DNA of 64,000 bases from contig CAZXFX010000008.1 of NCBI GenBank assembly GCA_964640295.1, forward strand, positions 3,153 to 67,152. Direction: 5' to 3'. Below are positions 3,699 through 57,686 of this stretch, piece after piece. Position 1 is the stretch's first letter; every line of letters begins with the position of its first letter. The position numbers and the translations under genes are program-made. Below the pieces are notes generated by a model. The model was not told the DNA's origin, did no database searches, and saw only the letters and a program-made list of their open reading frames with translations. Origin of the DNA: an uncultured Dehalococcoidia bacterium (lineage in GTDB: Bacteria > Chloroflexota > Dehalococcoidia > Lucifugimonadales > UBA1123).

Positions 3699-5431
3699 TG
3701 TCGGCTCCCCTCTGGCCCTGGTTCGTTTCCTGGATTCGGCGTAGGCGGAGTAGGATTGAGTCCGCTGGGCGAGCGTTCGGCTCTGAATCGCCGTCCCCTG
3801 CGAACCAGAATGACTATCAGGACAGCCACCGGAACCCATATTACGCCGAAGACGCCAAGCCAGATAGCGAGTGTCGTCAAGCTGGATATTACCACGCTCA
3901 ACGTCCTGACCGCTGTCTTGGAAGTTTCCCCTATGTCAAAGCCGCCCGCTATGAGGCCCGGATCCTCACCCACCCAGACGAGTATCTCGTGGAATGACAC
4001 TATCTCCCCCACCGCGCTGTCCGCGGTGATGGTAAACCGCGTCCTGTAAGGTGTCGCGCGGTAATCGGCGTACACGTGCGTGGCGTCCACACGAGTTACG
4101 CCCTCCGCCAGGTCGCCCACTTCAGGCCGCGAGCCGTCTCCGAAGTCCCACTCGTACCGAACGTCGCTGAGTCCCGCTGGGCGCGTAAACGAACCGGAGA
4201 ACTCCACCGTCTCGCGCTGAAGCGCTCGATATTCCCTTTCGCCCGCGAACACCTCTATCACCGGTGTTTCGGACACGGTAACTATCAGCGTGTCCTCGCC
4301 CTCGGCGACGCCGCTATCGCCGTAACTGCTAATCGTTGCCTGGACGATGAATGGCGAATCTCTCGGGTCGTCATAGGAATGCGTGACCGTGGCGGTCACG
4401 CGCTCGCCCTCGTTGGTTGTCGGCGCAGAGCGGCGGGTGGTCACCGGCTCGGAACCGTCTCCAAAATCCCAGGTAATCTGGTTTTCGTCCATGCCCTCCG
4501 GCGGCTTGAACGTCGCCTTGAATCTGATCGGATTATAAGCGGCGACGGACTGGTCGGGACCGGCGTCCACTGACATATCGAGCGGAGCCAGACTCAGGTG
4601 AACGGTTATCAGCGAGTACGCCGACGTCTCTTCCAGCAGCTTGATGCGCCCCAGCAGTCGCTCGACGTTCTCCTGAACCGAGCTCAGTTCGCGCTGAACC
4701 GCGAGAGCGTGCTCCACGCTCGCGGCCCTGTCCATCAGCTTGATGAGCGCGGCCTCGGTTGCCTGCTGGTTCTTCAGGCGGGAGTGTAGATCGAAGTACT
4801 CGTCCGTAACGTCCTGGCTGGAGGAGATTTCGGACTCGACGTCCTTGGCGATGAGGCGCAGCGATTCTATGGCCGAGTCCAGTTCTTCCGCTGGCACGCG
4901 AACGCTCACGCTTCCGGCGTGTTTTCGCTGGCGGTCGGTCGAGACCACCCAACCGCCCAGGCTGTCCGCAAGTTCCGAGATTTGGTCTATCGCGGCCTGT
5001 ATTTCGTCAACGACGATACCCATATTGACGGTGCGAATGATTATGCGTCGCTGGGACACCAGTTGCGCTATCCGCTCTCCGTCCGAGCGTTCCATGACAA
5101 CGGTCTCTCGCGCATCCTGTCGAGGCGCGGGCGCGGCGGCCGCCGGCGCCTGCGGCGCGGCGACTTCTCTTTCTACGATGACCTTCTGTTCAGTAATCAT
5201 CTGGGCCGCCGCGGGCGCGGCGGGAGCCGGGGCGACAGCCCCTTGCGCCGCTGAGTCGTCGAATGGATTACGGAGTCCCATAATAGTTCTGTCCATTCCC
5301 ATTGACTCGCGGAACTCCGCTCTCTCTTCCACCAACATCTCTTCATCACCTGAGGAGCCGCAAGCGAATGTTAGCGCGGCCAGGAGCGATACGATTGCGA
5401 CGATGACGAAAGCCATCGGGTTTATCTTCAT
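3695..5431 (-). CDS. Lipoprotein with a DUF4349-like domain, two PKD-like domains and a C-terminal membrane anchor
   Basis: Lipobox LTFAC after MKINPMAFVIVAIVSLLAA. The DUF4349-type block includes RVPAEELDSAIESLR...SQDVTDEYFDLHSRLKNQQATEAALIKLM...SAYSLITVHLSL. There are two WDFGDGS motifs (PKD) and a TM helix close to the C-terminus, followed by a short basic/Pro-rich tail. A GGGGAG RBS precedes the ATG at 5431. Confidence 0.7.
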   Translation of the reverse strand: MKINPMAFVIVAIVSLLAALTFACGSSGDEEMLVEERAEFRESMGMDRTIMGLRNPFDDSAAQGAVAPAPAAPAAAQMITEQKVIVEREVAAPQAPAAAAPAPRQDARETVVMERSDGERIAQLVSQRRIIIRTVNMGIVVDEIQAAIDQISELADSLGGWVVSTDRQRKHAGSVSVRVPAEELDSAIESLRLIAKDVESEISSSQDVTDEYFDLHSRLKNQQATEAALIKLMDRAASVEHALAVQRELSSVQENVERLLGRIKLLEETSAYSLITVHLSLAPLDMSVDAGPDQSVAAYNPIRFKATFKPPEGMDENQITWDFGDGSEPVTTRRSAPTTNEGERVTATVTHSYDDPRDSPFIVQATISSYGDSGVAEGEDTLIVTVSETPVIEVFAGEREYRALQRETVEFSGSFTRPAGLSDVRYEWDFGDGSRPEVGDLAEGVTRVDATHVYADYRATPYRTRFTITADSAVGEIVSFHEILVWVGEDPGLIAGGFDIGETSKTAVRTLSVVISSLTTLAIWLGVFGVIWVPVAVLIVILVRRGRRFRAERSPSGLNPTPPTPNPGNEPGPEGSRQ

Positions 5432-9328: not shown

Positions 9329-9431
9329 GTATCAATTCAGTCGGCGCTCCACATTGCGCGAAAATCCCTTTCCTCTTGATGGGGGAAGATCAGGATGGGG
9401 GTAATCCAACCCATCCGCCAAACTGATACAG
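9329..9431 (+). repeat. Copy A of a dispersed roughly 100-bp intergenic element with short terminal inverted repeats
   Basis: GTATCAA...GCGCTCCACATTGCGCGAAAATCCCTTTCCTCTTGATGGGGGAAGATCAGGATGGGGGTAATCCAACCCATCCGCCAAACTGATACAG. It is near-identical in most positions to the copies at 28339-28443 and 38991-39092. Confidence 0.65.
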
Positions 9432-9580
9432 GCTCACAAGTGAACAGTATATACAATCCTCCGCCCAATTCGTATAGAATTGCGATTGGAAACCTTGGCG
9501 TATCGAGAGACGCGAACGCCTTCCACTTAGAAAGAGCGTCTATATTTCGCGGCTTTGCCCGACGAGACAGGGAGGAACCG

Positions 9581-11380
9581 ATGCCAAATTTCACCACGCG
9601 ACCGGTAGTAATGAGCGCCAGGGGCGTAGTCACATCCGGACACTATCTCGTCTCCTCAGTCGGATTGCAGATGCTGGCGCGCGGCGGAAACGCGATAGAC
9701 GCCGCAGCCGCTATGGGCATCTGCGAAACTCTTCTCGAACCGCAGTCCTGCGGCATCGGCGGCGAAGTCCCGACACTCATCTACTCCGCGAAAGAGCGCA
9801 AGACCTACGCGATTTCCGGCATGGGCTGGTCGCCAAAGGCGTTCACCATTGACTGGTGCCGCGAGAACGGCATAGACCTCATTCCCGGCGACGGCTATCT
9901 GCCCGCCTGCGTTCCGGCCGTCGTCGGAACATGGACGACCGCGCTCGCCCGATTCGGCACGATGAGCTTCGCCGAGATAGTCCAGCCCACTATCGCCATG
10001 GCCGAGAACGGCTTCCCCGTTTACGAACGCCTCGCCCAAACCCTCGCGGACAGCTACGCCAAGTTCACCGAACTCTACCCCACGACCGGCGAGATATACT
10101 ACGCCAATGGCGGCGTCCCCGAAATAGGCGAACTCGTCCGAAACCCGGACTTCGGCGCGATGCTGCGCTCGCTTTGCGACGCCGAGAAGCGGACGAGCGG
10201 CGGGGGGCGCGTCGCCGGAATCGAAGCCGCCAGAGACGAATACTACAAGGGAGGCGTCGCCGAGAAGATCGTCCAGTTCATCAGCGACAACCCTGTCGAG
10301 GACGCCAGCGGGCTCGCCCACACTGGCCTGCTGACGCTCGATGACCTCGCCGAGTGGAACGCGGTCGTCGAGCCGCCCGTCTCCATCGAATACAAGGGAA
10401 TGGACGTCCACAAATGCTCTTCATGGACGCAGGGCCCCACCTTCTTGCAGCATCTCGCGGTGCTGGGCGCGATGAACGCGCCCGCGCTCGGACACAACAC
10501 CGCCGACTATCTGCACGGCTGGATAGAATCATCCAAGCTCGCCTTCGCAGACCGTGAAGCGTACTACGGCGACCCCGATTTCGACGATGTTCCCCTGGAC
10601 GAACTTCTCTCCTACCGGTACGCCGAGACGCGGGCGTCCCAGATAGGCGAACGCGCCTCGTTCGAACTGCGACCCGGAGACCTGGGCGGCGGGGCGCCGG
10701 CCTACACATCCGTCAGCGTGGCGGAGGACAACCGCGCCGCGCTCGGAGTGGAGGCGCGAGCGATACGCGACCTGGGCCTGGGACACGCGCACATCGGCGA
10801 CACCACGCACCTCGACGCCATGGACGCGGAAGGCAACATGGTCGCCGCGACGCCGAGCGGCGGCTGGCTCGGCACTTCGCCCGTGATAAAGGGGCTCGGA
10901 TTCCCGCTCGGCACTCGCGGCCAGATGTTCTACCTGAACCCCGACCGTCCCAACGCGCTCCAGCCGCGCAAGCGTCCCCGCGCCACGCTGACTCCCACCA
11001 TCGTCACCCGCGACGGCTCTCCCTTCATGGCGTTCGGCACGCCGGGCGGCGACTCGCAGGAGCAGTGGACCATCCAGTTCTTCATGAATCACGTAGATTT
11101 CGGAATGAACCTGCAGGAGGCGCTGGACGCGCCCACCGTGCATTCCACGCACTTCCCGTCGTCGTTCTACCCGCGCGCCGCGTTCCCCGCTCGCGTCGTC
11201 GCCGAATCGCGCATTTCGGCGGACGCAATCGAGGAGCTAAAACGGCGCGGCCATGAAGTCGAGTTGACCGACGCCTGGGCAAACGGCAAAGTAATGGGCA
11301 TCCGCTGGCACGAGGAAAAAGGAGTAATAGCCGGCGCCGCTTCCGCCAAGAACAACATAGGCTACGCAATGGCACTGTAG
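9581..11380 (+). CDS. ggt: Gamma-glutamyltransferase family protein
   Basis: Autoprocessing/nucleophile region GDTTHLDAMDAEGNMVAATPSGG, followed by TPGGDSQEQW. I chose the start at MPNFTT after a GGGAGGA RBS. The longer ORF from 9395 would run through repeat copy A. Confidence 0.85.
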   Translation: MPNFTTRPVVMSARGVVTSGHYLVSSVGLQMLARGGNAIDAAAAMGICETLLEPQSCGIGGEVPTLIYSAKERKTYAISGMGWSPKAFTIDWCRENGIDLIPGDGYLPACVPAVVGTWTTALARFGTMSFAEIVQPTIAMAENGFPVYERLAQTLADSYAKFTELYPTTGEIYYANGGVPEIGELVRNPDFGAMLRSLCDAEKRTSGGGRVAGIEAARDEYYKGGVAEKIVQFISDNPVEDASGLAHTGLLTLDDLAEWNAVVEPPVSIEYKGMDVHKCSSWTQGPTFLQHLAVLGAMNAPALGHNTADYLHGWIESSKLAFADREAYYGDPDFDDVPLDELLSYRYAETRASQIGERASFELRPGDLGGGAPAYTSVSVAEDNRAALGVEARAIRDLGLGHAHIGDTTHLDAMDAEGNMVAATPSGGWLGTSPVIKGLGFPLGTRGQMFYLNPDRPNALQPRKRPRATLTPTIVTRDGSPFMAFGTPGGDSQEQWTIQFFMNHVDFGMNLQEALDAPTVHSTHFPSSFYPRAAFPARVVAESRISADAIEELKRRGHEVELTDAWANGKVMGIRWHEEKGVIAGAASAKNNIGYAMAL

Positions 11381-11544: not shown

Positions 11545-11768
11545 AGTCCTGCCGGCGCTTTGAGCGCTTTCGCCTCATGTTCCAGAACAGCCCTCACCTT
11601 CCACTCATCCACACTTGGGAACCATTCCAAGAACTGTTCCACTGTAGCGCCGCTCCCCAGGTTTTCAAACAGGGCCGCCACCGGCACTCTCGTTCCTGTG
11701 AATGTCCAGACGCCACCGAGCTTCCCCGGCCGCCGCTCCACTGCCAAGTACGTATGCCAGTCCGTCAT
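11541..11768 (-). CDS. DUF433 domain protein (antitoxin-like HTH partner of DUF5615)
   Basis: PGKLGGVWTFTGTRVPVAALFENLGSGATVEQFLEWFP matches the DUF433 core pattern G-P-x-GTR-V. Confidence 0.7.
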   Translation of the reverse strand: MTDWHTYLAVERRPGKLGGVWTFTGTRVPVAALFENLGSGATVEQFLEWFPSVDEWKVRAVLEHEAKALKAPAGL

Positions 11769-11829
11769 ATCATCGCCTCAATTCTAATGCTATTTGACGT
11801 TTGTGGCCCGCCAGTGAAGAGAAACGAAG

Positions 11830-13056
11830 TCACGCCGCCCGACGGGTACTCAAAGCCTCGTCGCGCAATGCCCTTATTCTATCAGCCAAATCGCCGATGC
11901 GGGCAAGAACCTCATCCAGCGTCCCCGACAAATCCAGGGCGGCGACCTCCAGTCGCTTGCCTGAATGCCTAACGTGATAGATTCTCTCATCGGACTCTCC
12001 CTTTGCGTAGATAAGCAGACCGCCCGGCAGATCGAGCGCGGTGGCATAGGCAAGCAACTGGTAGAGATCGGCGTTGGGAACGTGGCTATGAGGTATGCGC
12101 TTGTACTTCGCGTCACCTACAAATCTGCAAACACGACCCTCCCACCATGATAAGTCTGGCCTGAGTTTAATCTGACGTGTCTCGTCGAGATAGATGGAGT
12201 GAGGCAGATTCTTGTCGGAGCGTAGCGCGCGACCGGAAACGCCCAGCGCTTCCCTGAGCGCCTGGGTTACGAACTCTTGGAAGACGTTGTTCATGTTCAT
12301 CAGGAATCCCGACGCCCGAATCCTGCCCCTGCCCGACTCGAACGCGCTGTGCCTGAGTATGAGGCGCGACAGACCTACTACGCCTCGATAATGTTCGTTC
12401 AGGCGGTTGAATGTCACATTCGGGGCGCCTGTCCGAGAAAATTCCATCAGCGATACGTTCTCAAGCGAGCCGGCGACCCACCCCAGACCCTTGCGCGCAT
12501 CCTGAGAGCGCAGGCGCATTCCGGCAAGTCGAATCGCCGCCGCCTTCACGAGTCGGTTCGCTAGAATATCCTCGGTGAATTCGTCATACTCCACCTCTAT
12601 CGGCAGCGGGACGCCAAACCTGCGCCGTATCTGCTCATCGAACCTGATTCGCCCGCGAATGCCATACAGCGCTTCCTGCTCAGATCGGTATCCGTGCAGA
12701 AGCCCGCGAGAGAACGCCCTTCGCGCCGCGGTCACAAGAGCCAGCGCCAAAACATCCGGCAGAGCGTATTCAGGAGGATAGTCGAACATTTCGCGCTGCG
12801 GCTTGAACTTGCTCGTTGCGTAGCAGGCAAGCGATAGCAATTGAGGAACGCCTATCTTGGGCTCTATGAACACAGACAAGTCGCCAATCTCGATTGCGCC
12901 GACTGTCGCCCCCGGCGTCAAGCGATACAGGTTCAACTCGCCCTCGCAGGGTTCGACTCCAACAGACGAAATCGTCGCCCGAAGCGCGTCGCGCTCTGCA
13001 ACAGAGAGGCGGTACTCTCTGGAATCGTATTCTTTCAGGTCAATCGGGCGCATCAT
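11830..13056 (-). CDS. mcrC: McrBC restriction system, McrC endonuclease subunit
   Basis: 408 aa. PD-(D/E)xK-type region LRPDLSWWEGRVCRFVGDAKYKR. The start ATGATG overlaps the mcrB stop, and it lies directly downstream of an McrB-type AAA+ gene. Confidence 0.85.
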   Translation of the reverse strand: MMRPIDLKEYDSREYRLSVAERDALRATISSVGVEPCEGELNLYRLTPGATVGAIEIGDLSVFIEPKIGVPQLLSLACYATSKFKPQREMFDYPPEYALPDVLALALVTAARRAFSRGLLHGYRSEQEALYGIRGRIRFDEQIRRRFGVPLPIEVEYDEFTEDILANRLVKAAAIRLAGMRLRSQDARKGLGWVAGSLENVSLMEFSRTGAPNVTFNRLNEHYRGVVGLSRLILRHSAFESGRGRIRASGFLMNMNNVFQEFVTQALREALGVSGRALRSDKNLPHSIYLDETRQIKLRPDLSWWEGRVCRFVGDAKYKRIPHSHVPNADLYQLLAYATALDLPGGLLIYAKGESDERIYHVRHSGKRLEVAALDLSGTLDEVLARIGDLADRIRALRDEALSTRRAA

Positions 13057-28338: not shown

Positions 28339-28443
28339 CTGTAACGATTTAGTCAGCGCTCCACATTGCGCAAAAGTCCCTTCCACCTTGATGGGGAAAG
28401 GCTAGGATGGGGGTGATCCAATCCTCCGACAAAACTGATACAG
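28339..28443 (+). repeat. Copy B of the dispersed roughly 100-bp intergenic element
   Basis: CTGTAACGA...GCGCTCCACATTGCGCAAAAGTCCCTTCCACCTTGATGGGGAAAGGCTAGGATGGGGGTGATCCAATCCTCCGACAAAACTGATACAG. Confidence 0.65.
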
Positions 28444-28450
28444 CCTCGCT

Positions 28451-38114: not shown

Positions 38115-38909
38115 CTACCCGGATTTCCAAACCGGCCTCCGCTTCTCAGAGAAAGCGCGAGGCCCCTCGATTGCGTCCTCCGTACTCTGAACATGTTCCA
38201 TGATCGGCGCGCCGAGCCGGACAGAGTGCTCTACAGGAACATCCTTGCCCCCATAGACGATGCGCTTGATTCCCTGCACTGCGAGCGGAGCGCACAGCTT
38301 GATCTCTTCTGCGATTTCGTCGCACTTGCTGATCAGCTCTTCTCTATCCTCAACCAGATGCTGAATAAGGCCAATCTGATAGGCTCTTTCGGAATTTATG
38401 CGAGTTCCGGTGAGCATCATGTTCAGCGCCTCCCCAAGCGGAATCATGCGCGACAGGTTGTGGACGGCGTGCCCGGGGAATATGCTCCAGCGCGCTTCCG
38501 GCAGACCAAATTGCGACTGCCGGGTAGCGACTCTGATGTCGCAGCAGAGCGACATTTCCAACCCGCCGGCGACGCAGTATCCGTCAATAGCCGCGATTAC
38601 GGGTTTGAAGACTCCTCTGTCCGCGTAGGAACTCACCAGCGGCCTGCGTATCGGGCTCTCAGGTCTGTCTCCGGCCTCGTCGAGCGCGGCGCGCTCCTTC
38701 AGGTCCATGCCCGCTGAGAACGCCCGTCCGCCGCTGCCTATCAGAATTGCGACGTAGAGCTCCGGGTCGCTCCCAAATTCGTCCAGAGCCTCTCGCAGAC
38801 CTCTGCCCAGTTCGCGACTGATTGCGTTGAGCGATTCAGGCCTGTTCAGCGTGATGTATGCGATGTTGTTGCGCGTTTCGTATAGAATCGTATCGGTCGA
38901 GATAGTCAT
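38115..38909 (-). CDS. Enoyl-CoA hydratase/isomerase (crotonase) family protein
   Basis: ITLNRPESLNAI, GGRAFSAGMDLKE and AAIDGYCVAGGLEMSLCCDIRVA. Confidence 0.85.
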   Translation of the reverse strand: MTISTDTILYETRNNIAYITLNRPESLNAISRELGRGLREALDEFGSDPELYVAILIGSGGRAFSAGMDLKERAALDEAGDRPESPIRRPLVSSYADRGVFKPVIAAIDGYCVAGGLEMSLCCDIRVATRQSQFGLPEARWSIFPGHAVHNLSRMIPLGEALNMMLTGTRINSERAYQIGLIQHLVEDREELISKCDEIAEEIKLCAPLAVQGIKRIVYGGKDVPVEHSVRLGAPIMEHVQSTEDAIEGPRAFSEKRRPVWKSG

Positions 38910-38990
38910 TGCCCGCCCCCGTTAAAGCTGATTCCGAGTGTATTAGCGGCGTAGTTCAGTGTCAACGCGAGAATGCCCCTTCCCATGAAC

Positions 38991-39092
38991 CTGTATCAAG
39001 TTAGTCGCGCCACCTTGCGTAAAAGTCCCTTCTACCTTGATGGGGAAAGGCTAGGATGGGGGTGCTCCAATCCTCCGACCAAACTGATACAG
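38991..39092 (+). repeat. Copy C of the dispersed roughly 100-bp element, with the clearest terminal inverted repeat
   Basis: CTGTATCA at 38991-38998 and TGATACAG at 39085-39092 bracket GCGCCACCTTGCGTAAAAGTCCCTTCTACCTTGATGGGGAAAGGCTAGGATGGGGGTGCTCCAATCCTCCGACCAAAC. Confidence 0.65.
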
Positions 39093-39126
39093 ACTCCCTT
39101 CCCATTTTTGCCTACATATCCTCATC

Positions 39127-39357
39127 GCGCTATGCTACAATACCCACAGTCTGAGAACAAATATACCAAACATATATACCAGAAGTTATCAACCAGTCCA
39201 CGCGAGCTCGGGAAAAACTCTCTGAACTGGTGAATACAGGTCTTTGCAGGTGAAATTCAGGTGGCAACAGGTGGCATAATTCACCTGCAACGCATCAGAA
39301 GCCACCTGCGCGCCACCTGCAGGCTCGCCAGAAGAACTATAAACCAGGGGATATTCC
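39127..39357 (+). repeat. Left arm of a long inverted repeat (partner 52514-52772); contains an extended -10 and a CACCTGC/GCAGGTG motif cluster
   Basis: TGCTACAAT at 39133-39141. There are six GCAGGTG/CAGGTGGC/GCCACCTG motifs between 39246 and 39319. The reverse complement aligns by eye over most of its length with 52514-52772. Confidence 0.7.
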
Positions 39358-39467
39358 TCACGGAATATGTATGAGACTGATATAGACTTACGGCTGGAAG
39401 ATGGGTTCATATAGAGCCTCTTTCGTTGTAAACTCAGCCCATACGAAACAACCAGACGGAGGCAAAT

Positions 39468-41069
39468 ATGCCCGTAGATATGAATCGTGAAAGCTGGAAG
39501 CCGGGAGACAGTTGGGAGAAAGCGATAGAGGACATACGCTATGTTCGGGAACTGGCGGCGGAGCTCGGAGGGCCTGAACGGATCAAGCGACAGCATGATG
39601 GCGGACGCTATACCGTCCGCGAGCGCATAGACAAGATGGTTGACACAGGCAGCTTTCTGGAAGCCGGTCCAATGGTAGGCGCGGCGGAATTCGACGAGGA
39701 CGGCAATATCCGCGGCTTCACTCCCGGAGCGTACGTGATGGGACTGGCCGAAATAGATGGACGCCCGGTCGCCATTGGCGGAGACGATTTTACGATATCC
39801 GGGGGCAGTCCACACAATGTTCGGAAAGGAGCGAGGCAGTTCACTCAGCCGCTTGCTGTGCAGTACGGCATACCTTATGTGCAGCTAGTGGAGGGCGTGG
39901 GACACAGCTCCAAGTCGGACGAGGCCTCCGGACACATGGGTCTGCCCGGAGGCGATCTGTGGTGGCGTGGCGTCGAACTACTGAGAAGCGTTCCTGTCGC
40001 CGCCGGGATCATGGGTTCGGTAGCCGGAGCGCCCGCCGCCTTCGCTCTGATGTCCCATTTCACGGTAATGATCAAGGAACAATCCCAGATATTCCCGTCC
40101 GGACCGCCGGTAGTGCGCCGCGCGATTGGCGAGACGCTGGACAAAGAGGAACTCGGCGGATACCAGATGCACGTCCACGACAGCGGCCAGGTGGACAACG
40201 TGGCCGAGTCCGAAGAAGACGCGTTCGAGCAGATCAAGTCGTTCATCTCCTATCTCCCCAATACGACAAACGATGTCGCGCCCCGGGTGGAAACGGGCGA
40301 CCCGCCCGATCGCAGACCGGAAGAATTGCTCAACATCATTCCGACCAACCGCAAGCGCTCCTATGACCCTCGCAAGCTGATTCGCCTGGTCGTGGACAAT
40401 GGCGAATTCTTCGAGATGCGTCGGCATTGGGGCGGAGCCGTCATAACAGGCTTCGCTCGCCTGGACGGATACAGTGTAGGGGTGATTGGGAGCGACCCGC
40501 GCTCGATGGCGGGAGCCATGGACGGCTGGGCGGCTGAGAAGTACGCGCACTTCGTTGATCTGTGCGACGCCTTCAACCTGCCAGTCGTGATATTCCTGGA
40601 TATGCCCGGATTCATGCTCGGCTCGCACGCCGAGCGAAAGGCAACGATGCGCAGGGGCGTGCGCGCGCTGATAGCGAGCGCCGAAGCGGACGTGCCTAAG
40701 ATCGAATTCAACGTCCGCAAAGCGTATGGCGTCGCGGCGGACGCTCCGCACAGCCTCGGCCACCCGAATGGACTGAACTTGCGCTTCGGATGGCCAGCCG
40801 GAGAGTGGGGCGGCATACCAATAGAGGGAGGCGTCGCGGCGGCGTACCGACGCGAAATCGAAAACGCGCCCGACCCGGACGCCCATCGCGAAATGATCGA
40901 AAATCGCCTGCTCAGACTCAGGTCGCCGTTCAGAGCCGCGTACAAAGGCGACGTGGTTGATCTGATAGATCCGCGCGAAACCCGACAACTCGCGTGCAGG
41001 TTCGTAAAGCTGGCGCAGCCCATGCTGCATAAGCTTGCCCAGAGGCCAAAGCGCGCCGTCCGCCCGTGA
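39468..41069 (+). CDS. Acyl-CoA carboxylase carboxyltransferase (beta) subunit family protein
   Basis: 533 aa. Has GRPVAIGGDDFTISGGS, a duplicated crotonase-like carboxyltransferase fold, and PVVIFLDMPGFMLG. Confidence 0.85.
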   Translation: MPVDMNRESWKPGDSWEKAIEDIRYVRELAAELGGPERIKRQHDGGRYTVRERIDKMVDTGSFLEAGPMVGAAEFDEDGNIRGFTPGAYVMGLAEIDGRPVAIGGDDFTISGGSPHNVRKGARQFTQPLAVQYGIPYVQLVEGVGHSSKSDEASGHMGLPGGDLWWRGVELLRSVPVAAGIMGSVAGAPAAFALMSHFTVMIKEQSQIFPSGPPVVRRAIGETLDKEELGGYQMHVHDSGQVDNVAESEEDAFEQIKSFISYLPNTTNDVAPRVETGDPPDRRPEELLNIIPTNRKRSYDPRKLIRLVVDNGEFFEMRRHWGGAVITGFARLDGYSVGVIGSDPRSMAGAMDGWAAEKYAHFVDLCDAFNLPVVIFLDMPGFMLGSHAERKATMRRGVRALIASAEADVPKIEFNVRKAYGVAADAPHSLGHPNGLNLRFGWPAGEWGGIPIEGGVAAAYRREIENAPDPDAHREMIENRLLRLRSPFRAAYKGDVVDLIDPRETRQLACRFVKLAQPMLHKLAQRPKRAVRP

Positions 41070-41097
41070 AAGCGTCTAATTGAACAGGAGAGTCAAG

Positions 41098-41661
41098 ATG
41101 GTGACTACTAGGACGAGAAACTGGCCCACATACGAAGAATACATCGACATCCCCGGCGATAACCGTTACGAGCTAATTAATGGAGAATTCATATTGGTTT
41201 CCGCGCCTAACGAATCCCACCAGACGGTCGAATTACGGCTTGGCGCGCGGCTATATATCTTCGTGGAAGAGGACAATAATTTGGGACGAGTCTATACCGC
41301 TCCGTTCGAGGTCGTTCTAACTGATCCTGAAGGCATAAACATCGTCCAACCCGACATCATCTTCGTATCCAAAGAGCGCGAACATATCATCACGCCTACC
41401 AATATACAGGGCGCGCCCGATCTGCTGATCGAGATTCTTTCCCCTTCGACGCGCAGAAGGGACAGAACGACCAAGCGCGACCTCTACGCCCGGCACGGAG
41501 TCAGGGAATACTGGCTGGCCGACCCCGACGCCCAGACCGTGGTCGTCATGCTCTTGAACGACGGCGAATTCGAGACGGCGAGAGAGTACGGCATAGAAGA
41601 CACCCTCACCTCACCCACCCTGGAAGGCTTCTCCGTAAGACTGGACAGCATATTCACGTAA
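41098..41661 (+). CDS. Uma2-family (DUF820) PD-(D/E)xK endonuclease-like protein
   Basis: YELINGEF, QPDIIFVSKE, APDLLIEILSPST, KRDLYARHGVREYWLADP. An AGGAGA RBS precedes the ATG at 41098. Confidence 0.8.
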   Translation: MVTTRTRNWPTYEEYIDIPGDNRYELINGEFILVSAPNESHQTVELRLGARLYIFVEEDNNLGRVYTAPFEVVLTDPEGINIVQPDIIFVSKEREHIITPTNIQGAPDLLIEILSPSTRRRDRTTKRDLYARHGVREYWLADPDAQTVVVMLLNDGEFETAREYGIEDTLTSPTLEGFSVRLDSIFT

Positions 41662-44454: not shown

Positions 44455-45303
44455 ATGCAATTTTGCATTCGACTGATGACTATTGCGTTTCTGTCCTCGG
44501 CGATCATATTCGTGGTTGCCTGCTCGTCGGGACTGACCGAATCTCAGGTCATCGAACTCATACAAACGCATTCCACCCCTGGTCCCGCAGGCGAGCAGGG
44601 CCCTCCGGGTCCGCAGGGGCCGCAAGGTGATGTTGGAGATACAGGTATGCAAGGTCCACAGGGTGAGGTTGGTCCGAAAGGCGCCAAGGGCGATCCGGGT
44701 CCGCAGGGAGCCAGAGGTGGCGCGGGGCCGCAAGGCGATACTGGCCCACAAGGTAAGACTGGTCCGAAAGGCGCCAAAGGAGATACGGGACCGCAGGGGC
44801 CCAGAGGCGACGCAGGGCCGCCGGGCGACACTGGCCCACAAGGTGAGCCTGGTCCGAAAGGCGCCAAAGGAGACAGGGGACCGCAGGGGCCACAGGGCGA
44901 TATCGGACCCCGAGGCGAAGAAGGTCCCGCGGCTAAAGTCATAACAGTTCCCAGTTTCTGGTTCATCCAGTCCTTTGACGACGGCGACACATATGCGGAA
45001 CTCTGGTCTCCGAAGAACACCTATAACGAGGCCATCGTCAAATTGTGTAGGTCAGATAGTATCTGGGTAAACGGTGACTTCTCAGATATTGGAGGAGAGA
45101 GAGTCGAGGTCGCCTACACAGGCGAAGACGGTCGAATTACAGACAGGTGGTATGTGTCAGAAAGTGGGGACGCCATATTCGGCGATAACAGATTCACTCT
45201 CACACTCGCCACCTCTGACGAAGTACTCCTGGAAGTTCCCGCGGCGGACTTTTCAACGATGTTTCAGACGTCGGGATACCCAATTGATAGGTGTGGACTC
45301 TAG
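44455..45303 (+). CDS. Collagen-like (Gly-X-Y) repeat lipoprotein with a globular C-terminal domain
   Basis: Lipobox VVACSSG, then 39 uninterrupted G-X-Y triplets, then a roughly 120-aa non-repetitive domain. Confidence 0.8.
44581..44931 (+). repeat. Gly-X-Y coding repeat with an underlying 90-bp tandem periodicity
   Basis: GGTCCGAAAGGCGCCAA[AG]GG recurs at about 44671, 44761 and 44851, giving the 30-aa unit [30 protein letters not shown]. Confidence 0.8.
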
Positions 45304-51238: not shown

Positions 51239-52111
51239 TTATACCCTCTCGAACTTGGATACCCTCTCGCCTTGCCCTATCTCGGTAACGTAGATGCTGC
51301 CGTGAGAGTCAACGCATATCCCGTGTCCGCCTATAAGCGTACCCAGTCCCGCGCCCTCATTGCCGCGCCAGCGGGTGATGAGTTCACCGTCCATCGTCCA
51401 TATACTCACGCCGTTTCCGCCGCCCTGCTCTATTACGTAGATGATGTCGTCATGTATCCAGAGGTCTCCGGGAGCGGTCATGTCCGTCCACTCTTCGATG
51501 AAATTGCCCTCATCATCGAATATCTGCATTCGATCATTCTCGCGGTCTGCGATATAGACCCGGCTGTTCTTGTCCACCCAGATATTGTGGAGCAGCGCGA
51601 ACTCGCCCGGGCCGGTCCCTTCCCTGCCCCAGGACTTGATTAGCTCGCCTTCGGCAGAGAACTTGTGAACGCGATGTCCTCCGTACCCATCCGAGACGAA
51701 CAGGCAGCCATCCGGCGCGATTGCCAGACCGGAAGGCATATTGAAGGGCAGTCCTTGGAATGACGGAGATGGAGCGAGCTTTTCGCCTAGAGTGCGCAGC
51801 GGCTCGCCGCCGGGCGTGTACTCGGTGGCGATGTGGTAGTCTCTATCAACCAGCCAGACGTTGTCATTCGGCGCGATATATATCCCGTGGGGGTTCGCCG
51901 AGAAAGTTCCTTCGCCCCATGAGCTTATGAAATTGCCGTCCGTATCCCAAATAGTCAGCGGATGCAAGCCTCGGCTGAAGATATACACCTCATCCTTAGA
52001 GTTCACGGCTCCGTCGGAGGCGGCTCCGAACTCCCAGTACTTGGGCATATTGGGCCACTGCTCCACTCGTTCGTATTGAAAATCGCCCGATCCTACAACT
52101 GCCATTATCAT
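51239..52111 (-). CDS. NHL-repeat six-bladed beta-propeller protein (peptidyl-alpha-hydroxyglycine amidating lyase-like)
   Basis: Recurring blade motifs: PHGIYIAPNDNVWLVDR, PSGLAIAPDGCLFVSDGY, LHNIWVDKNSRVYIADREN, GHGICVDSHGSIYVTE. Confidence 0.75.
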   Translation of the reverse strand: MIMAVVGSGDFQYERVEQWPNMPKYWEFGAASDGAVNSKDEVYIFSRGLHPLTIWDTDGNFISSWGEGTFSANPHGIYIAPNDNVWLVDRDYHIATEYTPGGEPLRTLGEKLAPSPSFQGLPFNMPSGLAIAPDGCLFVSDGYGGHRVHKFSAEGELIKSWGREGTGPGEFALLHNIWVDKNSRVYIADRENDRMQIFDDEGNFIEEWTDMTAPGDLWIHDDIIYVIEQGGGNGVSIWTMDGELITRWRGNEGAGLGTLIGGHGICVDSHGSIYVTEIGQGERVSKFERV

Positions 52112-52360
52112 TTGCCTCCTGAGTTTTCTGCCTTCTTGGCAGGCGCTACGATTTTATTTCCCAGAGTCCAGACCGTCAACCGAGCCGTTCGATCTTTGAT
52201 CTGATGACCGACTGGGGACGAACCTGATATCTGAGAGTGGCAGGTGTTTTTGCGCGATGTTGGGTACGTTGGCGCACATAGCGCACTCATGTTCTTAAAT
52301 GTGATTATAGCATAGGCAAGGGGGAGTTGGAATGGTGAATTGAGAAGGGTGAATTTGGAA

Positions 52361-52445
52361 TTATCTGACGTCTGATTGGGGTTGAGCCTTCCGCCGTTGA
52401 TGCGCTGAGAGGGGGAAGGGATTTTGCAAGGTTGGTGGGACGTTT
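52361..52445 (-). repeat. Diverged inverse-orientation copy (D1) of the roughly 100-bp element
   Basis: GCTGAGAGGGGGAAGGGATTTTGCAAGGTTGGTGGGACG resembles the reverse complement of ...CCACATTGCGCAAAAGTCCCTTCC.... It shares the left flank GGTGAATTTGGAATT[AG]TCTG with the copy at 57507. Confidence 0.4.
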
Positions 52446-52513: not shown

Positions 52514-52772
52514 GAAATATCTTCTGGTTTATAGCGCTCTGGTGAGCCTGCAGGCGGCTTGCAGGTGTCTTCTGGTGGGTTTCAGGTGGAATATGTCGCC
52601 TGTATCCACCTGCAGGCCACCTGCAAAGACCTGTATTCACCAGTTCAGAGGTTTTTTTCTGCGCTCGCTCGGACTGGTTGATAAGTTCTGGTTTATGGGT
52701 CGTTAGTTGTTAGATTGGCTTGCGTAATTTACGCATATTTGTTCTTGGGTTGTGAGTATTGTAGCATAGGGT
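52514..52772 (-). repeat. Right arm of the long inverted repeat (partner 39127-39357)
   Basis: The strings ...CCACCTGCAAAGACCTGTATTCACCAGTTCAGAG... and ...GGACTGGTTGATAA[GC]TTCTGGT... and ...TATTTGTTCT...GTATTGTAGCATAG are reverse complements of the left arm. A roughly 30-bp insertion sits at about 52690-52725. Confidence 0.7.
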
Positions 52773-52879
52773 GGGGGGAATTGGGAATGGTGAATTTAGA
52801 ATATCGAAACCGAGTAGATTCGAACCGAAACGCCGAAAGCATGCTGATATTTGGAAATACTCGGATTTGAGGACCGCCG

Positions 52880-53932
52880 ATGCTTAAAGAGTTTGGACAT
52901 CTCTACCGCGAGGAAGTTAGGGCGGAGGCGGAGCGCAGGTTCAAGTTGGAGCGCGTCGGCTCGATGCCTCTCAGGGGAAGCCACAGCTATGTCTTCGAGT
53001 ATACGGGCGACGCCGCTTCTTCCGTGATACTCAAGATAACCCATAGCTCTCATCGAGAGACGCGACAGATACTGGGAGAACTCGATTTCACGAACTATCT
53101 TGCCGACAACGGATTGAACGTATCACGGTCCGTGCCGTCTGCGGTCGGGAAATCGGTCGAAACGCTGGAAGCCGATTCTGGCTACTTTCTGGCTACCGCG
53201 TATGAGAAGGCGCCGGGCGCGCTGGTGGACTGGCGCGAGTGGACGCCCAACCTGTTCGAGCAATGGGGAGCGCTGATAGGGCGAATGCACACTCTGTCGA
53301 AGGAGTACCAACCGTCCGACGAATCGCTGCGCCGCAGACACTGGCATGAAGATAGAGACTGGGAACTGGATTCCAGCGTACCCGAATCTCGCTTGGAATT
53401 TCGGCGTTATGGGCAGAGAGTCAAGGACTGGCTGCTCTCGCTGCCGGCGGATAGAGATGCCTACGGCCTTATACACTCCGACCTGCACCAGTGGAATATG
53501 CTCTACGACGGTTCCGAGCTCTGGCCGATAGACTTCGACAATCTGCATTACGACTGGTTCTTGTCCGACTTTACCACTGTCATCATCAATGCGGTCATTT
53601 GCCAGTCCCATAGCTATAAGCGCGCCGAGTACGACGAGTGGACCGGCGGTCGGAAGATGGACAGCGCAGCGTTTCTGGACTACTTCATGGAGCCGTTCCT
53701 GAGCGGATACCGGCAGATGAACGATATCGAGCCGATCTGGATTCGCCGTCTCCCTCGATTTTTGCGCCGACACTATTTCACGTTTTACGTGGACGCCCTC
53801 TGTGATCCAGGATTCACAGACCTCTCAGAAGAAGAGCAAGCCGCCGAATTTCCGTGGCGCTCGATGGCGCAGCTAGAGGAGGAAGTCCGAACCGAATTCT
53901 GGCGGCAGTTCGACTTTTCGAAATTCGCTTGA
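52880..53932 (+). CDS. Phosphotransferase (aminoglycoside/choline kinase-like, APH) family protein
   Basis: Catalytic loop LIHSDLHQWNMLY and the metal-binding segment PIDFDNLHYDWF. Confidence 0.75.
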   Translation: MLKEFGHLYREEVRAEAERRFKLERVGSMPLRGSHSYVFEYTGDAASSVILKITHSSHRETRQILGELDFTNYLADNGLNVSRSVPSAVGKSVETLEADSGYFLATAYEKAPGALVDWREWTPNLFEQWGALIGRMHTLSKEYQPSDESLRRRHWHEDRDWELDSSVPESRLEFRRYGQRVKDWLLSLPADRDAYGLIHSDLHQWNMLYDGSELWPIDFDNLHYDWFLSDFTTVIINAVICQSHSYKRAEYDEWTGGRKMDSAAFLDYFMEPFLSGYRQMNDIEPIWIRRLPRFLRRHYFTFYVDALCDPGFTDLSEEEQAAEFPWRSMAQLEEEVRTEFWRQFDFSKFA

Positions 53933-53996
53933 TTTTCGCGCAACTTAGGGCGGCGACTGAACTGAATTGATATTGGTTGCGCCATATATAGGGCAG

Positions 53997-54088: not shown

Positions 54089-57000
54089 ATGAATCCGTAT
54101 GGAATTCATGGAGGTCAACCGCTTATGCTGAGTATTCGCTTTGCGTCTGTTGCGTCAATGATCGTCCTTGCTGGCTTGGCGCTGTCCCTTTTGCTCTTCG
54201 CTTCTGGACTTTTCGGCGACAGCGGCGGCGATCAGGCAGCGGATATTCCCGAACCGCAAGAGCGGGAGTATCCCAACCTGGGTTCGCAACTGAACAGGAT
54301 GGTGGAGGAGTATGAAAGCGGGGTCAGCGCTCTGCCCGCCGGGGACAATAGCGCGGCGCAGGCGATGGGCCGCGATTTGGCGCAACAGGCGCCTTTGCAA
54401 CTGGACGGAGCGGTGGCGATTACCGTTTACGTGTCCGGAAACGTGGCGACGGTGGTGGGGTTCATGGAGTCTGTCGGAGGCGACCCGCGCAACGTGGGTG
54501 ACGACTATATCGAGGCATACGCGCCGGTTTCGATTCTGGGCGCGCTGTCGCAGCGTCCCGGCGTGGATCGGGTGGAGGCAATCATACCGCCAGAGCCGGA
54601 TTACGGCAGCGTTCTGAGCCAAGGGGTGGCGGCTCACCTGGTCAACGCCTGGCACGCGCGGGGCGTCACGGGCCAGGGCGTCAAGATAGGAATCATAGAC
54701 TCGGGATTCCGCGACATACGCAGTATCCAGGGCACAGAGTTGCCGACGATTATTCACGCCCGGTGTTTCTCCTCGCTGGGGAGATATTCCACCAATCTGG
54801 CGGATTGTGAGTCGGTGCCTGAAGTTACCTGGGAAGCTGACCCATCATGCCTTCCTTACAGGCGGGGACTGGCGAGTCGGCCTGGTCATGGGACAATAGT
54901 GGCCGAGACGGTCCTCGACATGGCTCCGGGGGCTACCCTGTATATTGCGGATCCGTCGTCTTCTGGAGATTTGGCCAGCATCGTCAACTGGATGACATCG
55001 CAGGGGGTGACAGTCATCAATATGTCGCTGTCGTGGGTTTATGACGGTCCTGGGGACGGCACGTCCAAATACAGTAGCAGCGCTCTGAGAGCGGTTGACC
55101 GCGCGGTAAGCCGGGGCGCTCTCTGGGTGAACTCAGCAGGGAACTCGGGCCAGGAAAGTTGGCTGAGCGCATGGTCCGACCCCGATAGCGATGGCAAGAT
55201 GTCCTTCAGCCGCACTGTCAACGACGAAGTCATGGATATTCCGCTGCGGCCCTGCACACGGTACTTGATCCAGTTGCGGTGGAAAGACGACTGGTTCGGA
55301 CCGGACACGGATCTGGATCTGCACTGGTACAAAGAAAAACGAAGGGGTGATATATTCCAGCGCCGCGGCGCAAACTGGGCAAAGCAACCAGATACCGCGC
55401 GAGGGGATCGTAATCAGGACACCCAACTTTTCAGGTATAGATAACACTAAGGGTATCGTTGTAACCCGCGCGAGCGGTCCGATTCCGGACTGGGTTCAGA
55501 TATTGGTCTGGGGCATTGATCCCATCCAGCATTACAACACCAGGGGAGGCATCAGCAACCCCGGTGAAAGCGCGAACCCGGGGATGCTGACCGTTGGGGC
55601 GTCGCATTACAGCCGACCCCTGTCCATCGAGCCTTACAGCAGCCGGGGCCCGACGCCGGACGGTCGGGTCAAGCCGGATATAGTTGGGGTGGACTGCGCC
55701 CAGACGTCGCTGGTGTCCAGTTTCTGCGGAACCAGCCAGGCGTCGCCGCACCTGGCGGGTATGGCGGCTTTGGTCAAGCAGAGGAACCCGACGTTCAGTC
55801 CTCAGCAGATAGCGAACTACCTGAAGAGCAACGCACAGGACTGGGGCGTATTGGGCGTGGACAACACATGGGGACATGGGCTGGCGCGATTGCCGGCGCC
55901 TAATCCGGCGCCTACACCGACCTATACCCCTACGCCGACCTATACTCCTACCCCTACACCCGCATCGCGCCAGGCGAATTGCGTGGCGACAATCACCGCT
56001 GACGGAGCGGTATCCGGAACCTGGGCTGACGATTGCCAGTCTGAAGAATCGGCGCGGGGCTACGCTCGCTACTACACCTTCACGCTGACTCAGAGGAGCG
56101 AGGTCACGATTGACTTGGAATCCAGGGTTGATACTTACCTGTATTTGCGTAGGGGCAACAACGCTCGCTCCGGCAGTTTAGTGGCGGAGGACGACGATGG
56201 AGGCGGCAACCAAAACTCGCGGATTAGGAGGACCCTGGCGGCTGGCGATTACACCATTGAGGCTACGACGTATAGAGTCCACCAGACGGGCGACTTTATC
56301 CTGAAGGTTGCGGGACTGGGCAATAACGTTCAGCCGACGCCCACGTACACGCAGACGCCCACACGGGCGGTTATCCTGACGCCGACATACACACCCACGC
56401 CTATCGTTGTGGCTGGGAATTGCGCGCAGACGATCAGCGCAGACGGGTCAATCACCGGAACCTGGCGATCTGGCTGCCAATCCCAAGAGTCGGGACGCGG
56501 CTACGCTCGCTATTACATTTTCTCGCTGGGGCGGGATAGCGATGTCACTATCCAGCTGGAATCCGCTACGGACCCGTACCTGTATTTGCGTAGGGGCAAC
56601 GACAGGCGCTCCAGCAATATAGTCGAATACGATGACGATGACGGCGGCAACAGAAACTCCCGAATTAGCCGAAGTCTGTCGGCTGGGATTTACACCATCG
56701 AGGCGACTACTTACGCTGCTGGGCAGACGGGCGACTTTACCCTGACGATTACTGGTCTGGTCGGAGGCGTAGCGCCGCCCCCGCCGCCGAATACTTTCGT
56801 GCCGGACGCCAACCTGGTGGCCAACATCCAGCGGTGGCGAGGTGAAACTCATCACGGGCAAGCGCACATTGATCGCTGGACCAGGGCGCTGATTGCGTTG
56901 GGCGTAGAGACGGGCAGCCTGAGTCCGATGACATCCAGCGAGGCGCAAACATACGTGGACAGAGGATGGGGGAGCCGTTGGCGCCCGGTGGTGGCGGAAT

Positions 57001-57500
57001 TGCGGCGCAAGGAGAATCACGACGCAGGCAGGTCTCAGGGTCGGGCTTCGCCGACGCCGGCCGCGACGCATACACCAACGCCGACGCCAGGTCCCACGAC
57101 GCCGACTCACACACCAACATCGACACCCGCGCCTCAAGTCGGGGCGAACGGCTGCGTGGAGACAATAGTGGCCAGAAGGCCGGTATCAGGGTCGTGGACG
57201 TCAGAGTGCCAGTCTCAGGCCACGTTCCGCGGTTACGCGCGGTATTACACCTTCACGCTAGATCAGTTGAGCATCGTCAACATTAACCTGGAGTCTGGAA
57301 TTGACAACTACCTGTACTTGCGTCAGGGTCATAATGTGCGGTCCGGCTCGGTTCTGGAAGAAGATGATGATGGCGGCGGAGATGGGGATGCGTTCATCAG
57401 CAAGCAATTGCCGGCCGGGGATTACACTATCGAGGCTACTACTTACGATGAGAATCGTTCGGGTAGATTCAGGCTGGAGTTCTCTTTGCTGGGGCGGTGA
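54089..57500 (+). pseudogene. S8 subtilisin-family peptidase with three PPC-type C-terminal domains, interrupted by a frameshift at an A-run (about 55334-55340)
   Basis: Asp (GIIDSGF), His (HGTIVAE) and Asn (NSAGNSG) lie in ORF 54089..55444. Ser (GTSQASPHLAG) lies in ORF 55347..57500. The two ORFs overlap in different frames around AAAGAAAAAC. Confidence 0.8.
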
Positions 57501-57516
57501 TGAACGGTGAATTTGG

Positions 57517-57590
57517 AATTGTCTGGCGATCGACTGGGTTGGAGTTTGAGAGCTGAGAGGGGAAAGGGACTTTTGGAAAACTGTTGACAG
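57517..57590 (-). repeat. Diverged inverse-orientation copy (E) of the roughly 100-bp element
   Basis: AATTGTCTGGCGATCGACTGGGTTGGAGTTTGAGAGCTGAGAGGGGAAAGGGACTTTTGG parallels 52355-52425. Confidence 0.4.
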
Positions 57591-57686
57591 AAGCGAACGA
57601 AAACCCTACCATTTGCGCAATGACTGAACGACGCTGGAAATGCGCCCAGTTTTTCTATGGAAAGAGAACCGCAGGAGGCCGACCGG

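Follow-up and report, generated by a model that had tools for sequence, protein, structure and literature searches.

A dispersed promoter–leader element, probably a portable cassette, upstream of unrelated genes in soil Dehalococcoidia

We analyzed 64,000 nt of DNA, called the window below, from an uncultured Dehalococcoidia bacterium (Lucifugimonadales, UBA1123; assembly GCA_964640295.1, contig CAZXFX010000008.1, positions 3,153–67,152 of the forward strand). The window carries two copies of a non-coding element of about 220 nt, copy A (39130–39355, + strand) and copy B (52515–52772, − strand). They belong to a family of 14 copies at 8 independent loci, 12 of the copies lying beyond the window in about 10 Dehalococcoidia metagenome-assembled genome (MAG) contigs. 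All 14 copies, at all 8 loci, are aimed at a gene on the same strand 10–400 nt downstream. These genes are unrelated to one another, orthologous sites have gained or lost the element, and it changes by modules. The element is probably a dispersed promoter–leader cassette. With moderate confidence, we favor a fuller reading in which this portable promoter-plus-leader cassette carries box arrays that pair in the transcript and serve as a hairpin handle; within it, the view that the box module acts as an RNA hairpin, and not as a set of DNA sites, is tentative.

An inverted pair of repeats directed at converging genes

A first-pass annotation of the window had described an inverted repeat of about 230 bp with one indel of about 30 bp. 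A repeat search of the 64-kb window recovered it as two collinear inverted pairs, I1 (39174–39332/52538–52696, 159 nt, 83% identity) and I2 (39130–39164/52735–52769, 35 nt, 86%). A MAFFT pairwise alignment of the arms confirmed the homology, which opened abruptly at CTATGCTACAAT in both copies and faded shortly past ...CTATAAACCAG..GATATT. The indel proved to be a 29-nt insertion in copy B (52701–52729, − strand) that contains a small hairpin, GCGTAAATTACGC (52722–52734), and overlaps its 3′ arm in the alignment and fold. One shared 31-mer occurred exactly twice, against 0.00 expected, and the longest identical run between the copies was 33 bp. Each copy contained 7 CWGGTG/CACCWG hexamers within about 95–105 nt, against a window background of 0.18 per 150 nt; the partner copy had thus kept the motif array, as first described, and the two copies were the only such clusters in the 64 kb. 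Searched with the 14-copy profile (nhmmer), copy A scored E=3e-55 and copy B E=3e-51. On the strand antisense to the element, the insertion hairpin of copy B, TGCGTAATTTACGCA followed by TATTTGTTCT (52721–52745, +), scores as terminator-like.

Each copy is directed at a gene from within a divergent intergenic region. Copy A is flanked by an enoyl-CoA hydratase (ECH) gene (38115–38909, −) and a carboxyltransferase gene (39468–41069, +; Pfam PF01039, E=3e-96), and spans about −338 to −113 relative to the start codon of the latter. Copy B lies between a phosphotransferase gene (52880–53932, +) and a gene for an NHL-repeat protein (51239–52111, −; Pfam PF01436), and spans about −660 to −405 relative to the NHL gene start, with another promoter in between. 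The layout of the pair is inverted because the two genes converge, each preceded by the same element. Downstream of copy A and outside the repeat lies the native leader of the carboxyltransferase gene (39403–39467, +), which is conserved in the element-free locus L025. A weak terminator-like hairpin at 39403–39429 belongs to this common native leader and not to the repeat.

Members of the family in other genomes

An exact-core scan over one genome per species gave four loci in two Dehalococcoidia MAGs, neither of them the window's own genome. Profile searches (nhmmer) added two divergent copies no more than 5 kb from one of these loci, and further copies came from loci of protein homologs. The element was present at seven LLM-oxidoreductase orthologs (L009, L010, L011, L013 and L015, reached through protein homologs, and L001 and L002, from the core scan) and absent from three (L012, L014 and L016). 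One more divergent copy, L016r (L016, 691–447, −), was recognized upstream of a Uma2 gene by its ATAAACC motif. A second-round nhmmer profile run over about 300 kb found no copies beyond the 14.

By Pfam assignment, the genes behind the element are a carboxyltransferase, an NHL protein, LLM oxidoreductase, a DNA methylase–endonuclease fusion, a thiamine pyrophosphate (TPP) enzyme, DUF1800, GNAT and Uma2. At L003, three members in the same orientation lie within 5 kb (345–554, 2199–2416 and 4801–5018) with a different gene behind each: the methylase–endonuclease fusion, the TPP enzyme, and DUF1800 plus an NHL protein, in a cassette-like, gene-by-gene layout. A short-read contig of 2.8 kb that encodes an identical carboxyltransferase stops inside the element, as is typical of a repeat.

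In several loci, the first gene that the element precedes is immediately followed by a gene of the Uma2 family (putative restriction endonucleases). The Uma2 genes lie at 41080–41661 in the window, 1405–2121 in L002, 11102–11815 in L009 and 11098–11814 in L015, and also 11631–12191 and 13150–13713 in L025. Uma2 genes are generally very frequent in these genomes, and L016r directly precedes one.

The family is not in Rfam and we found no description of it; it is a lineage-specific repeat of soil Dehalococcoidia. Rfam 15 gave no match in the window at the gathering threshold. At permissive settings copy A returned noise only, with E above 4 (AdoCbl-II reached 14 bits against a gathering score of 36.5), and nothing with an E of 5 or less appeared in L001–L004. 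The search for tRNA and tmRNA found none. A metagenome scan with a 20-mer returned only three copies of an unrelated sequence, which are chance matches, and two scans of viral contigs gave either no match or chance 16-mers, with no link to phages.

Anatomy and modular change of the element

From 5′ to 3′, members of the family consist of an extended −10, a GAACAAA block, ATAAACCNGAANTTATC, an A-run, an array of CWGGT boxes, an array of inverse ACCWG boxes and a second ATAAACCNGAANATAT. The ATAAACCNGAANNTAT motif thus occurs twice per element, before the A-run and after the inverse boxes, in the same orientation each time, and the host gene comes next. At the LLM loci the 3′ motif abuts the Shine–Dalgarno (SD) sequence, and the element spans about −240 to −10.

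The extended −10 of copy A, TGCTACAAT, opens the repeat at 39133–39141 (+), where the first-pass annotation had placed it and from where transcription would start; a pattern scan located TGCTACAAT in copy B at 52758–52766 (−). Ten of the 14 copies have the form TGCTAYAAT, and the remaining four have another −10-like hexamer. In the same kind of scan TGCTAYAAT was also found at unrelated promoters of these genomes, and it is therefore the usual strong −10 of the lineage. Because the element precedes and points at a gene in all 14 copies, it is reasonable to expect, as originally proposed, that the carboxyltransferase gene has a transcribed leader of about 320 nt.

The remaining features were placed by the family alignment and by scans for motifs and boxes. 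The conserved GAACAAA block starts about 12 nt 3′ of the −10 and reads AGAACAAA in copy A (39154–39161, +; alignment of 13 copies). It is followed by the 5′ motif copy, ATA(A/T)ACCNGAANTTATC (39174–39190, +), which in copy B is ATAAACCAGAACTTAT (52681–52696, −); in a scan of about 300 kb, the ATAAACC motif was almost confined to family members. The conserved A-run (GAAAAA) of copy A lies at 39213–39217 (+). Its direct array comprises five CWGGT(G) boxes at spacings of 10, 10, 11 and 10 nt (39227–39275, +). The first 27 nt of this array, ACTGGTGAATACAGGTCTTTGCAGGTG, are the most conserved stretch of the family, invariant in the copies recovered with the core probe and variable in L009, L010, L011, L013, L003b, L003c and L016r. 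The inverse array contains TTCACCTGCAA, GCCACCTGC, GCCACCTGCAGG and TCGCCAG (39280–39331, +), and the 3′ motif copy, CTATAAACCAGGGGATATT (39337–39355, +), closes the repeat on its 3′ side, where TATAAA may be a second −10. Copy B has 5 CWGGY boxes and then 5–6 RCCWG boxes (52539–52643, −), with its 3′ motif, ATAAACCAGAAGATAT, at 52517–52532 (−). Across the family, 3–5 direct CWGGT boxes are followed by 3–6 reverse-complement boxes (CACCWGCA). The pairing elements named in the first-pass annotation were all found in the raw sequence: the stem arms TTGCAGGTGAA (39244–39254) and TTCACCTGCAA (39280–39290), the boxes CAGGTGGC (39258–39265 and 39268–39275) and the boxes GCCACCTG (39301–39308 and 39312–39319).

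The family changes in modules. The promoter has been replaced in L002 and L003c, and the inverse array differs between orthologous leaders by whole-box indels. In L011, the 5′ half of the leader has undergone a tandem duplication of about 77 nt (9675–9770 versus 9771–9845; GAACAAAGGTAC..ATAAAGCTCAACTTATCC..GGGAAAAA). The window also holds a promoter-only second copy, without the box leader, directly upstream of the NHL gene (52280–52346, −; repeat family D9, also seen by pattern scan). This module consists of a 27-nt upstream sequence, then CCTATGCTATAAT, then AAGAACA, and duplicates 52740–52801 (−), with the upstream 27 nt reading GGGGAATTGGGAATGGTGAATT.. on the + strand, followed by CCTATGCTAYAAT and AAGAACA. 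The promoter and leader parts can therefore occur separately.

Gain and loss at orthologous sites

Orthologous sites differ in whether they carry the element, both among the LLM orthologs and between the window and L025. The L025 carboxyltransferase is 95% identical to that of the window, and both loci have the ECH gene on one side of the spacer and carboxyltransferase–Uma2–aminotransferase on the other. The L025 spacer is only 180 nt long and lacks the element. Homology between the two halts at 38966 and resumes at about 39400; a block of about 420 nt, made up of a MITE-like (miniature inverted-repeat transposable element-like) repeat plus the element, is therefore present only in the window genome. 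L011, with the element, and L016, with none before its LLM gene, agree in the methyltransferase–LLM gene order and over the first ≈215 nt of the spacer, past which L016 has a MITE-like repeat in place of the element of L011.

Two results weigh against mobility. No target-site duplication was seen in the filled/empty pairs L011/L016 and window/L025, where sequence had been replaced and not cleanly inserted. Terminal inverted repeats are likewise absent: the ends of the element are CTATGCTACAAT... and ...ATAAACCNGAANATAT, and its two internal ATAAACC motifs are direct.

The MITE-like repeat that abuts copy A (38985–39100, +; family D3 of the repeat search) makes up, together with copy A, most of the ≈420-nt block. 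This repeat of about 115 nt occurs in the window at 9329–9435, 28341–28447 and 38990–39096 and partially at 53931–53965, ≈52390–52440 and ≈57540–57600, and also in L016 at ≈9855–9935. Its consensus is ...CTGTATCAATTCAGTCG..CACATTGCGCAAAAGTCCCTTCCCCCTTGATGGGGAAAGGCTAGGATGGGGGTGATCC...AAACTGATACAG, with imperfect terminal inverted repeats of about 16 bp (CTGTATCARTTTWGTC) and an internal hairpin.

Box phasing and folding of the leader

Family alignments, RNAalifold and pair counts were carried out on 13 copies, and fold z-scores on 14. Nearest-neighbor boxes were 10–12 nt apart in both arrays of all copies. When distances were pooled, the best period was 10.25 nt between direct (G) boxes (R=0.88, n=124), 10.75 nt between inverse (C) boxes (R=0.66, n=115) and 10.75 nt from G to C boxes (R=0.62, n=254), the pooled distances not being mutually independent. 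Too few boxes arise in shuffled sequences for a shuffle control of the periodicity to be informative. At about 10.5 nt, the pitch matches the B-DNA repeat and comes near that of A-RNA, and it could be the slippage footprint of a 10–11-nt tandem unit.

The box region folded better than shuffled sequences in 14 of 14 copies, with a mean z of −2.49 on the sense strand and −1.85 on the antisense strand. The minimum free energy folds had nested box-to-box helices in common, between the first CUGGUGA and the last UCACCAG and between GCAGGUG and CACCUGC; these two helices (P1 and P3) were 83% paired across the 13 copies, against 29–47% with slid partners. In copy A the complementarity of the arms reaches past the box, to 11 bp. 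In L016r, the boxes CTGGG/CCCAG replace CWGGT/ACCWG and the arms are perfectly matched over 7–8 bp, the only clear case in which both arms changed together. Hairpin potential is a family trait, but the signs of selection on RNA pairing are weak.

Several results weigh against an RNA hairpin. On the 13 copies, RNAalifold kept a single 6-bp helix with 0 compensatory pairs, and the covariation score of 0.108 was not significant against 0.098 in shuffles, 101 of 500 of which scored as high; the covariation test that the first-pass annotation had suggested thus gave no support. Duplexes between a copy's own arms were no better than those with foreign arms (−34.1 versus −32.8 kcal/mol), save in L016r and L015. 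G–U pairs numbered 91 antisense versus 40 sense, and the antisense strand folded about as well. The C boxes often exceed the G boxes (6 versus 4 in L001, 5 versus 3 in L003c), and the second G box is partnerless in most copies. The 5′ arm is nearly invariant, its spacers included, for which pairing alone is an insufficient explanation. The z-score of the whole element was weak in several copies, for example +0.34 in L001. No conserved terminator, U-tract or SD-sequestering platform was found after the arrays; the SD follows directly in seven LLM loci.

A model for the cassette

In the reading that we favor, the cassette would be transcribed from its own −10, TGCTACAAT, together with the gene. 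The A/C-rich 5′ stretch with GAACAAA, ATAAACCNGAANTTATC and the A-run would be largely unstructured, and the two box arrays would pair in the transcript to form a long bulged hairpin. This hairpin would be a common post-transcriptional handle, affecting stability or serving as a processing or protein-binding site, and past the second ATAAACCNGAANATAT the host gene's own leader or SD would begin. Through the shared handle, unrelated genes would come under one control. Copy B fits this less well: since about 400 nt and a second promoter intervene, it may not serve as the leader of the NHL gene. We consider rather unlikely a stronger version, in which a self-propagating cassette, through its CWGGT and inverse arrays phased at about 10.5 nt, presents its RNA hairpin or its DNA to one oligomeric trans-acting factor and all members form a single regulon.

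Alternative explanations

The alternative that survives best, although we regard it as doubtful, is that the box arrays are a phased DNA operator to which an oligomeric regulator binds, one box to each turn of the helix. Such a regulator might be a roadblock repressor between promoter and gene, or an activator of a second promoter with the TATAAA of the 3′ motif as its −10. An array of six protein-binding sites had been suggested in the first-pass annotation; the count does not hold, as there are five CWGGT-type boxes followed by 3–5 reverse complements, and the notion of a site array is still alive, with some support from the phasing. All three pooled sets of box distances are strongly periodic near the B-DNA repeat. 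The sequence CTGGTGA-ATA-CAGGTCT-TTG-CAGGTGA-AAT, with about 6–7 conserved nt plus an AT-rich spacer of 3–4 nt, resembles direct-repeat operators, the surplus C boxes stay in phase, and the whole-box indels between orthologous leaders also fit. In most copies the last C box ends 4–6 nt before TATAAA, which would put boxes over the −35 position. However, TATAAA lacks the conserved final T of a −10, and relative to the only clear promoter the boxes are at +90 to +200. It is unusual for direct-repeat binders to have arrays in two orientations, the complementarity of the arms reaches past the boxes, and the periodicity may reflect slippage of the tandem unit. A Pfam scan of the neighboring genes revealed no candidate regulator gene linked to the element.

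Phased direct-repeat operators include the pho boxes of PhoB/PhoP-type (winged-helix) response regulators. MraZ sites are also a series of direct repeats (PMC8475190). Like these, the element has at least three repeats at a 10–11-bp pitch (spacings of 10, 10, 11 and 10; period 10.25, R=0.88), with 3–5 direct repeats, a 5–7-nt core and AT-rich spacers, and L016r reads TGGGN at an 11-nt pitch; the likeness is one of layout only. Unlike them, its repeats lie far 3′ of the promoter, at +90 to +200 of TGCTACAAT, with the inverse array next, and they would lie at a −35 only if TATAAA in the 3′ motif were a genuine −10. Its boxes are also dispersed before unrelated genes as part of a repeat, with no linked regulator gene seen.

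It is improbable that an RNA-binding ring or multimer loads onto the C-box array (as onto a Rho rut-like site, for example) and that masking of the array by the upstream G boxes makes premature termination or decay conditional. Rut sites are C-rich and G-poor, with C clusters about 11–13 nt apart. There are 5–6 C boxes at 10–12-nt spacing in L001, copy B and L003c, C boxes outnumber G boxes, the sense strand of the box region has more C than G (26–36% versus 22–27%), and the 5′ stretch is A/C-rich. Nevertheless, the G content is too high for a typical rut site, and it is the G-box arm, not the C-box arm, that is most conserved.

Slightly less probable again is a metabolite riboswitch or classical transcription attenuator, the layout that the first-pass annotation had read in copy A. 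The mutually exclusive pairings on which it was based do exist there, with the 11-bp stem 39244–39254/39280–39290 set against the box pairs 39258–39275/39301–39319, but the alternative pairing is not conserved outside the window. As in riboswitch and attenuator leaders, a long 5′ leader with conserved blocks has hairpin potential, seen in the negative fold z-scores. Unlike them, the element has no Rfam match beyond noise, no covariation, no expression platform and no coherent regulon: the downstream genes belong to eight unrelated families, and the arrays lack a conserved terminator or U-tract, with the SD directly next in seven loci. Gain and loss at orthologous sites is also unlike an aptamer tied to a pathway. 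Without significant covariation, a conserved terminator or a wobble signal on the sense strand, the proposal is unsupported.

Least probable of all is that copies A and B are functional substrates for inversion of the 13-kb segment at 39.4–52.5 kb, also raised in the first-pass annotation, for which we found no positive evidence. The copies do face inward over about 230 bp, with 83% identity and the 33-bp identical run. Elsewhere, however, members are single or lie as three direct copies within 5 kb, always following the orientation of the gene. Ten ORFs (open reading frames) in and around the segment were scanned, among them the four that flank the copies but not all ORFs of the 13 kb; they encode metabolic or other proteins and include no recombinase. 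The gene order of the segment is not kept in the nearest relative identified. No junction of another kind appeared in the one further contig available for comparison, which is 2.8 kb long, carries the identical carboxyltransferase gene and ends inside the repeat. Exchange within the leaders would leave both genes with hybrid but equivalent leaders, and therefore produce no switch.

Several other candidates were rejected. A small leader ORF does not fit because the 40-codon GTG frame of copy A is not conserved and indels of 10–11 nt would disrupt any reading frame. R''/R' cores, which an integron attC site would need, are missing, and the ATAAACC motif resembles XerC/D dif-like or IHF sites only in part. 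The ends of the element do not pair as they would in a 6S-like RNA, and the 3′ motif has no consistent −10 that would make it an antisense promoter. SD mimicry by the AGGUGA boxes is speculative, and the L016r and L009 variants do not conserve it.

Relationship to known dispersed elements

Putative mobile promoters (PMPs) are defined operationally: upstream of non-homologous genes, two sequences must share 80% identity or more over 50 nt or more, and the similarity is scored solely in the interval from −150 to −50 of the start codon (Matus-Garcia, Nijveen and van Passel 2012; commentary PMC3575422). Copies A and B share 83% over 159 nt, and 86% over the shorter 35-nt segment, and the genes behind them are non-homologous (Carboxyl_trans and NHL repeat), as are those at the other loci (LLM, methyltransferase, TPP enzyme, DUF1800, GNAT and Uma2). 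Copy A, at about −338 to −113, merely touches the −150 to −50 interval, and copy B lies at about −660 to −405. By the operational definition the element would belong to the putative mobile promoter class, its promoter activity being predicted only from the consensus TGCTACAAT. As with PMPs, it is highly similar and non-coding, stands before non-homologous genes in one genome, is shared by related genomes, and is neither an insertion sequence nor a known RNA family. Unlike the members of that heterogeneous operational class, it is much longer (about 220 nt) and includes a −10, a long part that is presumably transcribed and internal phased boxes, and copy B is more than 400 nt from its gene.

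The Correia elements of Neisseria are co-transcribed small interspersed repeats with the capacity to fold. Pneumococcal BOX (boxA–boxB(n)–boxC), RUP and SPRITE are small interspersed repeats with the same properties (PMC3049150). The element resembles all four in being lineage-restricted, intergenic and modular, with variable internal units and extensive secondary structure, and in being present or absent at orthologous sites. Unlike BOX, RUP and Correia elements, it has neither terminal inverted repeats nor a target-site duplication, and its flanking motifs are direct. It is also strictly co-oriented with the downstream gene and has its own extended −10 at the 5′ edge, and its internal unit is 10–11 nt long, arranged as a direct array and then an inverse one.

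Other repeats in the window

In the ORF at 44455–45303 (+), tandem units of 90 nt and 18 nt (families D2 and D4) encode collagen-like Gly-X-Y repeats. Inside the ORF at 55347–57500, three repeats of about 240–290 nt with spacings of 441/732 nt (D1, D6 and D10) extend over 55976–57445 (+), which suggests that its product has repeated domains.

Implications

The element is useful for annotation: in Dehalococcoidia MAGs it would mark where transcription starts and in which orientation, and it explains breaks in short-read assemblies. It is also a candidate for a strong, portable expression element in a group without genetic tools. The phased box array in two orientations is unusual, and no new mechanism has been demonstrated so far. 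If the favored reading holds, the same 220-nt control region stands before eight or more unrelated genes, appearing and disappearing among close relatives, and the family is a natural example of regulatory rewiring by the spread of a promoter plus leader in an uncultured soil lineage. Were the single-regulon version true, the spread of the cassette would have wired otherwise unrelated genes of soil Dehalococcoidia into one regulon.

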